Positions 29,488 to 31,375 of a DNA stretch of 64,000 nt are shown in pieces. Position 1 is the stretch's first letter; each line of letters opens with the position of its first letter. Made by a program: the position numbers and the translations under genes. The stretch comes from Amphiscolops sp. MND2022 (Eukaryota). The notes under the pieces are model-generated. The model was not told the DNA's origin and made no database searches. It worked only from the letters and a program-made list of their open reading frames with translations. The stretch lies in contig OZ076409.1 of assembly GCA_964187785.1 (NCBI GenBank), forward strand, positions 68,202,001 through 68,266,000, read 5' to 3'.

Positions 29488-29737
29488 TGTCTGAAGTAGA
29501 GCAGAACTTTTTAAAGCTAATAGTTAAGGTCCATGTTCATTCATGTTCTTTCAAACTTTTGGGAACGACAACCTACTTTCGTACTTTCTATATGAAGCCG
29601 AACTATTTTTGATACCCATTTTCCTGTTTCACCGGCAAAACGAGGTGAAAATGGTTCTTGAAAAGACATCTTTCTAGGCTTGCATTCTCATCAAGCCATG
29701 TTTCATACGTTTAAAAGTCTTTTTTCAGAGTTTCTCT

Positions 29738-30910
29738 ATGGAAAGCAACGCTTCAACTTTAAACTTGCCAGAGCAGCGAAACACTGAGGACCACATGGGT
29801 ATCAACCAAAATGAAGAGCCAATTGCCAGTTTCAACAAATTGCGAGATGAGGTTCTTTGCTTGAAAACTCAAATATCTGAATTGCGAGTAAATGAGTTGT
29901 GGTCACTAGCGAAAAAATTCCCCTTACTCAGTACATCCATTCAATGCAACTTATTACAGCACGAATGCAAGAAGAGCTATCCGAACTGAGGAATGAGATG
30001 ATTGAGAGGAAAAACGGAAACACTGTCTGTGAAACAAGAAATACCTCTGGCTCTACAGAAACTCTCGAGGTCTCGAGTCAAAGGAAAGGGATAAAAGAAA
30101 ATAAATTTCAGTCTAATTTGTTCAATGAAGCAAGAAGCAGTGGCGAAGTCAAGGAAAACGCAGCAAGCAATGGAGATATCAAGGAAAGCAGCTCAGAGGT
30201 TAAACCTGTGAAAAGAGAAAGTCTAAACGAAGATGTCATAAAGCGTCAAAACGAATTGATTGAAAGACACTCGAAAAAAATTGTTCCACTCGAACAATTT
30301 TCTCGCCATTTGCTTGAGCGTATAAAAAGTCTGGAATGTGGCCGTAATGGGTCAGTTGTTTGGAAACTCAGTGGCTTCAACCATATTTTCGAGGCGGGAA
30401 AAAGAGCTGAAGAATTCAAATCAAAAATTGAAAAAGTGCCAACAGACTTTTGTAGTCCAATAATTCTCACAGGTTCTCCCGGATATTCTTTGTATGTGAG
30501 ACTATTTCCATTTGGATGTGAGGTGGCAGCTGGCAATCACGTTTCTGTTTTTGTTGCCCTAATTCCCGGAATGTATGATGCTATTCTTGAATGGCCATTC
30601 AAGTCTGCAATCAAAATCAGCGTCATTAGTCAACATGATCCTGCTGATAGATGGACGCGATCAATAGTCCCTACTGAAAAAACTGGGAGCTGCTTCAAGC
30701 GTCCGTCTTCGTGTAAAGGAAACTTGTCGGTTGGTATACTGCACTTCCTACCACACAGGTGAGACAATTTAAAACAAAATTTGTTTTGAGTAAGTTTGAA
30801 GAAAAGTGGGATCATATTTTTTTTCAAGCTTGATACATGGATGCAGCAAAGATCGTGGATACCTGAAGGAGGATTCATTGTTCATCGAAGTTACCTTTTC
30901 AGCAGAATGA
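29738..30910 (+). CDS. TRAF-like protein (coiled coil + MATH/TRAF-C domain, no RING seen), spliced
   Basis: MATH motifs VWKLSGF, SP...GYSLYVRLFPFG, HVSVFVALIPGMYDAILEWPF, SCFKRP. Removing a GT-AG intron at 30759-30828 adds SLIHGCSKDRGYLKEDSLFIEVTFSAE*, which contains the typical TRAF C-terminal strand. The 5' part changes frame near 29890-29910. Confidence 0.85.
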
Positions 30911-31375
30911 AGTATTTATTCTGTGAACAAATGTTACGTTCGACTTGTTTTATAATCTTGAAACTAATTTAAAGATCAAACTGTATTTCCAACCTAGTTT
31001 TCATGAGCTGAGCTGCTACAGACTATAGGGATGAGTCCGTTGACTGATTAGATTCAATAGGCAGAGAATTTCCATTAGTGTATTCTATTTTTTTCCGATT
31101 CAGACGTCTTGAACCTAAATTTGGTAACCTGAGAGCTTTGACTTACATATTCAGTCGTACCCGATACGTTACTATAATGATAACATCAGAGAAGTGTCTT
31201 TTCAAGAACCATTTTCACCTCGTTTTGCCGGTGAAACAGGAAAATGGGTATCAAAAATAGTTTGGCTTCATATAGAAAGTACGAAAGTAGGTTGTCGTTC
31301 CCAAAAGTTTGAAAGAACATGAATGAAAATGGACCTTAACTATTAGCTTTAAAAAGTTCTGCTCTACTTCAGACA

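Follow-up and report, generated by a model that had tools for sequence, protein, structure and literature searches.

A likely defective, palindromic Polinton with a RING-less TRAF-like gene at its centre

Structure and copy number of the element

The stretch of DNA analysed here (the window) is 64,000 nt long and contains a palindrome at positions 22278-38212 (15,935 bp), which begins with AGTAGT and ends with ACTACT. It is flanked on both sides by ATCCGT as a 6-bp target-site duplication (TSD; 22272..22277 and 38213..38218, plus strand). The left arm (22278..29675, plus strand), a 7.4-kb inverted repeat starting at AGTAGT, contains a G-tract, subterminal tandem repeats of 84 and 175 bp and accessory ORFs. 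The right arm (31188..38212, minus strand; 7.0 kb), which carries the ACTACT end, is 96.5-98.6% identical to the left arm across the main blocks, and the inner arm ends (27977-29675 and 31188-32886) are 99% complementary. The inverted repeat makes up more than 90% of the element. The 1512-nt spacer between the arms (29676-31187) is occupied by a TRAF-like gene. A 3.77-kb tandem duplication (17707..25249, plus strand; 99.9% identical) covers flanking DNA and the outer left arm, giving a second left terminus at 18510; it is either a post-insertion event or an assembly artefact.

Outside the palindrome, the window holds an SAM methyltransferase (7876-8877), an SYF1/XAB2-like HAT-repeat gene in large exons (41485-48255), a PLAC8-family gene (56880-57365) and an LINE-type reverse transcriptase (60719-63596). 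A short dispersed repeat family is present at 313, 2580, 5840, 18358, 22126 and 41267; the same repeat lies inside an intron of the host TRAF-like paralog at C3:90.87M described below.

The spacer was matched over most of its length at no fewer than 40 places in the genome with 82-100% identity (43 matches, from the 40 scored among 82 candidates), including tandem matches and matches on small contigs that are possibly haplotigs. Both arms were present at most of the 30 TRAF-spacer loci fetched. Of 16 TRAF-bearing regions, 11 have paired AGTAGT-type ends with a 6-bp TSD that differs in sequence from copy to copy, and these 11 copies are 15.6-18.3 kb long; the other five lack an end within the fetched DNA or are rearranged. 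The same termini and 6-bp TSD were found in all four regions of a sister family and in all five complete Polintons tested.

Arm-to-arm identity inside one copy is mostly 97-99.7% (the older copy at C1:32.9M is lower, at about 95%), against about 88% identity between subfamilies, which differ by 11-20%. Since the match within a copy is above that between subfamilies, several subfamilies were inserted recently as whole palindromes. The spacer is prone to recombination; centres that were deleted, re-inverted or tandemly repeated were seen at L078 (C2:43.46M), L081 (C2:9.95M), L087, L014/L015 and L019/L020.

The spacer borders show only 5-nt chance repeats and no target duplication belonging to the TRAF-like gene itself. 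With the gene at the same place in many copies, it is not a one-off secondary insertion, which had been named as an outcome that would count against its being cargo of the element. The gene had also been described as the only single-copy cargo. This description is valid within the element but not genome-wide, given the spacer matches, and the arms also hold genes, in two copies each.

Arm genes and relationship to complete Polintons

Three arm ORFs are homologous to accessory genes of Polintons: ORF A (25232..25615, plus strand; profile E values of 7e-19 to 1e-29 against ORFs of complete Polintons), ORF B, which has a conserved HYH motif (26561..27139, plus strand; mirror copy 33620-34192, minus strand; profile E 1e-51 to 3e-62), and ORF C (27992..28585, plus strand; mirror copy 32278-32871, minus strand; E 5e-18 to 1e-41). 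All three are constrained, with dN/dS of 0.11-0.18 for ORF B, 0.21-0.41 for ORF C and 0.25-0.79 for ORF A. The ORF D region (28952..29487, minus strand; mirror copy 31376-31911, plus strand) is oriented divergently to the TRAF-like gene. It is a single frame of about 190 aa in the older subfamily and is in two pieces in the window copy; a homolog of ORF D was looked for and none was found.

In complete Polintons of the same genome, homologs of A, B and C all lie between pPolB and the protease (six of six regions fetched, E 1e-17 or better); these Polintons were reached only via a distant relative of ORF B. They are 14-16 kb long, apart from one of 20.5 kb with an internal duplication. One of 16.2 kb has matching ends and encodes a protease, an integrase and an A32 ATPase according to Pfam. 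Genome-wide, the pPolB family (PF03175) gave 93 matches, representing several Polinton classes with many near-identical young copies.

The core genes were searched for in the window element (22278-38212) by tblastn with proteins from seven Polinton regions, and no match was obtained: neither pPolB, integrase, capsid, ATPase nor protease was found. The arm ORFs are without a Pfam match, and no nucleotide-level match of the arms to a complete Polinton was found. The first six pPolB regions retrieved were rejected as relatives of the arms. Five of them do not resemble the arms by blastn or tblastx, and the sixth does so only through a palindrome copy located 10 kb from that Polinton. A weak resemblance of ORF B to a sub-terminal ORF of these regions (profile E 0.005-0.08, hhalign probability 9%) was not relied on.

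Fold searches with predicted models gave no significant match for ORF B (pLDDT 48) or ORF A (pLDDT 42). PC4-family entries recur in the latter search and weakly suggest a PC4-like single-stranded DNA-binding fold. An HUH-mobilised element (Helitron or Replitron), which would encode a Rep HUH endonuclease with a catalytic Tyr motif and lack such ends, was considered and rejected: the terminal inverted repeats (TIRs) and the 6-bp TSD speak against it, and the HYH motif of ORF B comes without a significant fold match.

The sister palindrome family without the TRAF-like gene (C4:8.285-8.302M, C1:45.076-45.096M, C4:16.776-16.795M and C1:2.339-2.354M; 15.6-19.8 kb) has AGTAGT ends, a 6-bp TSD and ORFs A, B and C. 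The one centre examined in this family contains a remnant of a Polinton protease (E 3e-5).

The element thus has TIRs with the common terminal motif, a TSD of the Polinton/Maverick type (5-8 bp, usually 6 bp) and genes homologous to those of Polintons, in agreement with the virus-like carrier originally proposed. From the Polinton ends and the homology of A, B and C, together with the absence of core-gene matches, the palindrome is assigned as a defective Polinton. It would be non-autonomous, and we infer movement in trans from young insertions with TSDs that lack the enzymes.

The TRAF-like gene

Exon 1 (29738..30758, plus strand) encodes a helical N-terminal motif, a variable linker, a probable coiled-coil stalk and most of a MATH domain. 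It is followed by a 70-bp phase-2 GT-AG intron (30759..30828, plus strand) and by exon 2 (30829..30910, plus strand), which supplies the last MATH strand and the stop codon and has no C-terminal tail. The ORF at 29944-30758 matches PF21355 (TRAF-mep_MATH) with E 5e-19, and among PDB sequences it is closest to TRAF4, 5, 6, 3 and 2 (E 3e-16 to 2e-8). The coiled coil was assigned by alignment: that to TRAF5 begins in the stalk, which also aligns to TRAF4. No RING or zinc-finger family was found in this ORF at E<=0.1, and the full exon-1 product of a relative (P0001) gave only MATH families above the cut-off, with no RING or zinc fingers. The original description of a RING-less MATH gene is confirmed by these matches, the coiled coil being probable.

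The intron reads GTGAGA...TTTTTTTTCAAG, and its removal carries the frame on into SLIHGCSKDRGYLKEDSLFIEVTFSAE-stop, completing the MATH domain. The GT..AG ends are present in all 36 copies that span the intron (39 rows were aligned, three of which do not span it), while the length varies from 57 to 72 nt. The predicted restoration of the last MATH strand on removal of the intron holds.

In the window copy, a frameshift near codon 60, not mentioned in the original description, splits exon 1 into an upstream frame of 83 aa and a downstream frame from 29944. Unbroken sister copies have an exon-1 frame of 343-359 codons from an ATG equivalent to 29738, and their predicted spliced product is about 372 aa long.

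The motifs of the MATH groove differ from the canonical TRAF2/3 types and match those of the host clade. These groove motifs, and the placement of the MATH domain in a divergent, lineage-specific clade, do not bear out the link to TNFR/TLR signalling that had been proposed from canonical TRAFs. The genome also contains a RING and zinc-finger TRAF (C10:42.09M), a canonical-type MATH domain (C2:79.08M) and many TIR-domain frames (29 TIR_2 matches). The zf-TRAF profile gave one match among 21 candidates; the TNFR cysteine repeat (PF00020) gave none among 84, in a search run without a positive control.

Selection and decay among copies

Of 39 copies, five were dropped (truncated or tandem twins) and 34 were scored. 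A frameshift or stop is present in 28 of these, the window copy included; six are unbroken. Exon 1 is open as well in L021, a copy excluded because of a gap. Two frameshifts are common to six copies, which represent one broken lineage that still spread, so the TRAF-like gene is dispensable for spread and not needed in cis.

Substitutions were assessed by counting methods rather than codon models, in regions picked after the alignment had been viewed. In the stalk and MATH domain, changes between three subfamilies comprise 26 nonsynonymous and 30 synonymous (dN/dS-like ratio 0.26, binomial p 7e-7), whereas changes private to one copy comprise 75 and 27 (ratio 0.83; Fisher p 0.001 versus the between-subfamily changes). 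Pairwise MATH estimates between subfamilies are concordant (0.23-0.40). Constraint extends to residues 30-95 (p 0.0014) but not to the linker (38 nonsynonymous, 7 synonymous) or to the first 29 residues. Where unbroken copies of different subfamilies differ by indels, the reading frame is preserved. The stalk and MATH domain are thus under purifying selection between subfamilies and private changes are near neutral, which is the pattern of a gene that is useful during replication of the lineage and decays once inserted.

Such selection could in principle act on the animals rather than on the element. The gene would then be kept for host benefit, with the palindrome as a defensive satellite or dosage amplifier and selection on animals that have an expressed copy. 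Intragenomic copying by itself would indeed not easily produce purifying selection on a trans-acting product, and a core-less element could compete with its helpers. We nevertheless regard host benefit as unlikely: no single locus stands out as old and conserved among the unbroken copies, which are spread over two subfamilies, changes private to one copy are close to neutral, and the arm genes of viral origin are equally constrained, which points to selection at the level of the element.

That the gene is a neutral passenger, captured by accident in the manner of a Pack-MULE and decaying since, is very improbable and largely refuted by the selection counts. The 28 broken copies, the amplification of a broken lineage and the neutral linker are what it would predict. 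The constraint between subfamilies is domain-specific, however, affecting the stalk with MATH and residues 30-95, the splice dinucleotides are invariant while the intron interior varies, and the indels between subfamilies are in frame. The original prediction was to be checked by dN/dS across copies, and the ratio of 0.26 shows no neutral decay in the replicating lineage.

A useful gene need not serve in immunity. It might act for the element as a MATH scaffold that recruits ubiquitin-pathway or cell-cycle partners, as the groove motifs unlike those of the canonical TRAF2/3 type would allow. However, the constraint on the retained TRAF stalk hints at TRAF-type trimer partners, and we give little credence to a non-immune role.

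Probable host origin and a second carrier

Two host paralogs were identified, at C3:90.87M (90.866-90.870M; multi-exon) and C3:25.70M (25.702-25.704M). In each of them, a phase-2 intron lies at the H-S codon that also carries the intron of the element. The intron is not a chance feature, because GT..AG is kept despite the varying length and the same site and phase recur in the two host paralogs; the common position and phase further support capture from DNA. Relatives P0069 and P0071 end at the intron-bearing H-S codon, consistent with the same intron in the orthologs of related species. Each host paralog also has one private intron that is missing from the element, from the other paralog and from P0069 and P0071, which suggests that the private introns are later, recent gains. 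Partial processing as an explanation for the absence from the element of a host intron at LER|F was rejected, since the second paralog, P0069 and P0071 also lack it.

The C3:90.87M paralog is 54% identical to the element gene over the stalk and MATH. A DNA search for a second copy of its exons gave none (40 of 4040 candidates scored; the intronic repeat dominated). Two quick trees, built from 46 and 26 rows and with SH-aLRT support only, place the element gene, the host paralogs and genes borne by LTR retroelements in one clade apart from the canonical TRAFs (SH-aLRT 99). The element gene groups with P0065 and P0078 (support 90-93) and is weakly nearer to the host paralogs than to the LTR-borne genes (support 85-87). 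Neither host paralog is pinpointed as the direct donor, identity being about 54%, and no P0094-type relative was found in this genome at E 1e-40. Host derivation and capture at DNA level, both parts of the original prediction, are supported by the MATH tree and by the shared intron codon and phase, respectively.

A deletion of the RING at capture is not supported. The C3:90.87M paralog apparently begins with one zinc-finger remnant, as does relative P0088, whose equally short architecture lies in one frame; the RING was therefore likely lost before capture and its absence inherited from the host gene. No RING exon was found in a 40-kb motif scan upstream of C3:90.87M, a region interrupted by transposons, and no upstream exon of C3:25.70M was found by motif search. 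Relative to the host, the element gene lacks the zinc-finger remnant and a conserved C-terminal tail.

A MATH search among 440 candidates gave at least 150 intronless matches in the genome. At all ten multi-copy loci fetched (L091-L110, for example), the TRAF-like ORF lies downstream of an env-like ORF (the last locus was seen in part). These LTR retroelements fall in two subfamilies; a fusion glycoprotein (PF24664) and an integrase were identified by Pfam in the ORFs scanned, and direct terminal repeats in two of the ten windows. The LTR-borne TRAF-like ORFs are 30-36% identical to that of the element, belong to the same clade, share its N-terminal motif and also lack the finger and tail. The abundance of these intronless genes, their like trimming and N-terminal motif and the ability of Polintons to acquire retroelement cargo, given in the available text of bioRxiv 2025.02.07.637071, could suggest that the palindrome took its gene from env-LTR elements and gained the intron afterwards, but this is scarcely credible, given that the intron has the position and phase seen in two host paralogs and that identity is 54% to a host paralog against 30-36% to the LTR genes.

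Interpretation

On balance, we favour the reading that the window contains a defective, core-less palindromic Polinton, likely helped by complete Polintons, whose RING-less TRAF was likely captured from host DNA, is under purifying selection and likely competes with the host paralogs; as a whole this is somewhat more probable than its negation. The reading is built on the ends, TSD, copy number, arm-gene homology, core-gene absence, shared intron, tree position and selection pattern.

Integrase, polymerase and perhaps capsid would be supplied in trans by co-resident Polintons, and the length of the element is near that of complete Polintons, as packaging would require. The mirror structure may have formed via fold-back or from two ends flanking the cargo; every new copy would start out with matching arms. 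The spliced product would keep the stalk and MATH without the finger remnant and C-terminal tail of the host protein. Stripped in this way, it could join host trimers or occupy their ligands, free of host regulation, and, in cells in which element and helper replicate together, might damp a signal for defence or death. This damping step is proposed tentatively and has slightly less than an even chance of being right. A role as immune or apoptosis decoy, as originally suggested, is conceivable.

Since the TRAF-broken lineage still multiplied in the genome, insertion would not require the gene in cis, and its benefit would be expected in the infected cell or during an extrachromosomal phase. Copying within a single germline does not readily account for selection on cargo when the element encodes no enzymes. 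This selection therefore offers indirect evidence on whether animal Polintons have an infectious or extrachromosomal phase, and suggests that they have satellites. The family also provides dated natural null and unbroken TRAF alleles for comparison.

The same host TRAF clade is found in two unrelated virus-like element classes, which suggests that the adaptor is a node in this lineage's defence against mobile elements. A single lineage-specific, RING-less host TRAF may be the common target of a genomic conflict: a capsid-borrowing Polinton satellite would have captured it from DNA, with the intron kept, and env-LTR elements, independently, from RNA; both would have trimmed it alike and would use it as a dominant competitor of the host adaptor during infectious spread. 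We regard this extension as rather doubtful.

Comparison with known systems

TRAF1 and the dominant-negative truncations of TRAF2, 3 and 6 consist of a stalk and MATH without a RING. The element gene appears to have the same composition, and the N-terminal RING and zinc fingers of canonical TRAF2-6 are absent from it. It differs from TRAF1 and the truncations in belonging to a divergent lineage-specific clade with other groove motifs, and in a RING loss inherited from the host.

The AGTAGT terminus is a hallmark of the Polinton family and is common to the window element and the complete Polintons of this genome. Polintons/Mavericks (adintoviruses) are 13-25 kb long with TIRs of 100-1,500 bp according to the available text of PMC10748475. 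The element agrees in its 6-bp TSD, TIRs, length within this range and homologous accessory genes; it differs in the absence of core genes and in TIRs of 7-8 kb.

The literature searched did not yield a palindromic Polinton that lacks core genes and carries a TRAF, or a TRAF clade shared by two element classes; subscription papers, repeat databases and supplements may hold such cases. The available portions of PMC11414722 and PMC11662393 contain nothing that bears on a TRAF-carrying palindrome.

In nematodes, Mavericks carry wasp/wosp and krma cargo that contains introns and was likely taken from hosts, and horizontal transfer has been demonstrated for them (bioRxiv 2022.07.12.499685, accessible text). 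Intron-containing, likely host-derived cargo inside a Maverick is thus common to both systems. The nematode elements, as described there, differ in keeping the core genes, in placing the cargo between TIR and integrase, and in the cargo itself, a protease or kinase.

Butterfly polintons have gene-containing TIRs, and polB-less mobile forms with cargo occur among them (bioRxiv 2025.02.07.637071, accessible text). They resemble the window element in genes doubled within long TIRs and in mobile polB-less cargo forms. Their TIRs hold hexon and adenain and their cargo is transposons, whereas the window element holds only accessory genes in its TIRs and a selected host gene as cargo.

A TRAF3-like predicted ORF is listed among MELD-virus genes in a figure legend of PMC8502044. 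In the planarian Burro, a giant env-bearing gypsy element, MATH_TRAF_C occurs beside BIR and BCL2-like motifs (PMC6431247, available text). Burro is a precedent for LTR-borne TRAFs and for MATH_TRAF_C on a mobile element. It differs from the window element in being an intronless retroelement, and sharing with a second element class is not reported in that text; in the present genome, the clade is carried by both a palindromic Polinton and env-bearing LTR retroelements.
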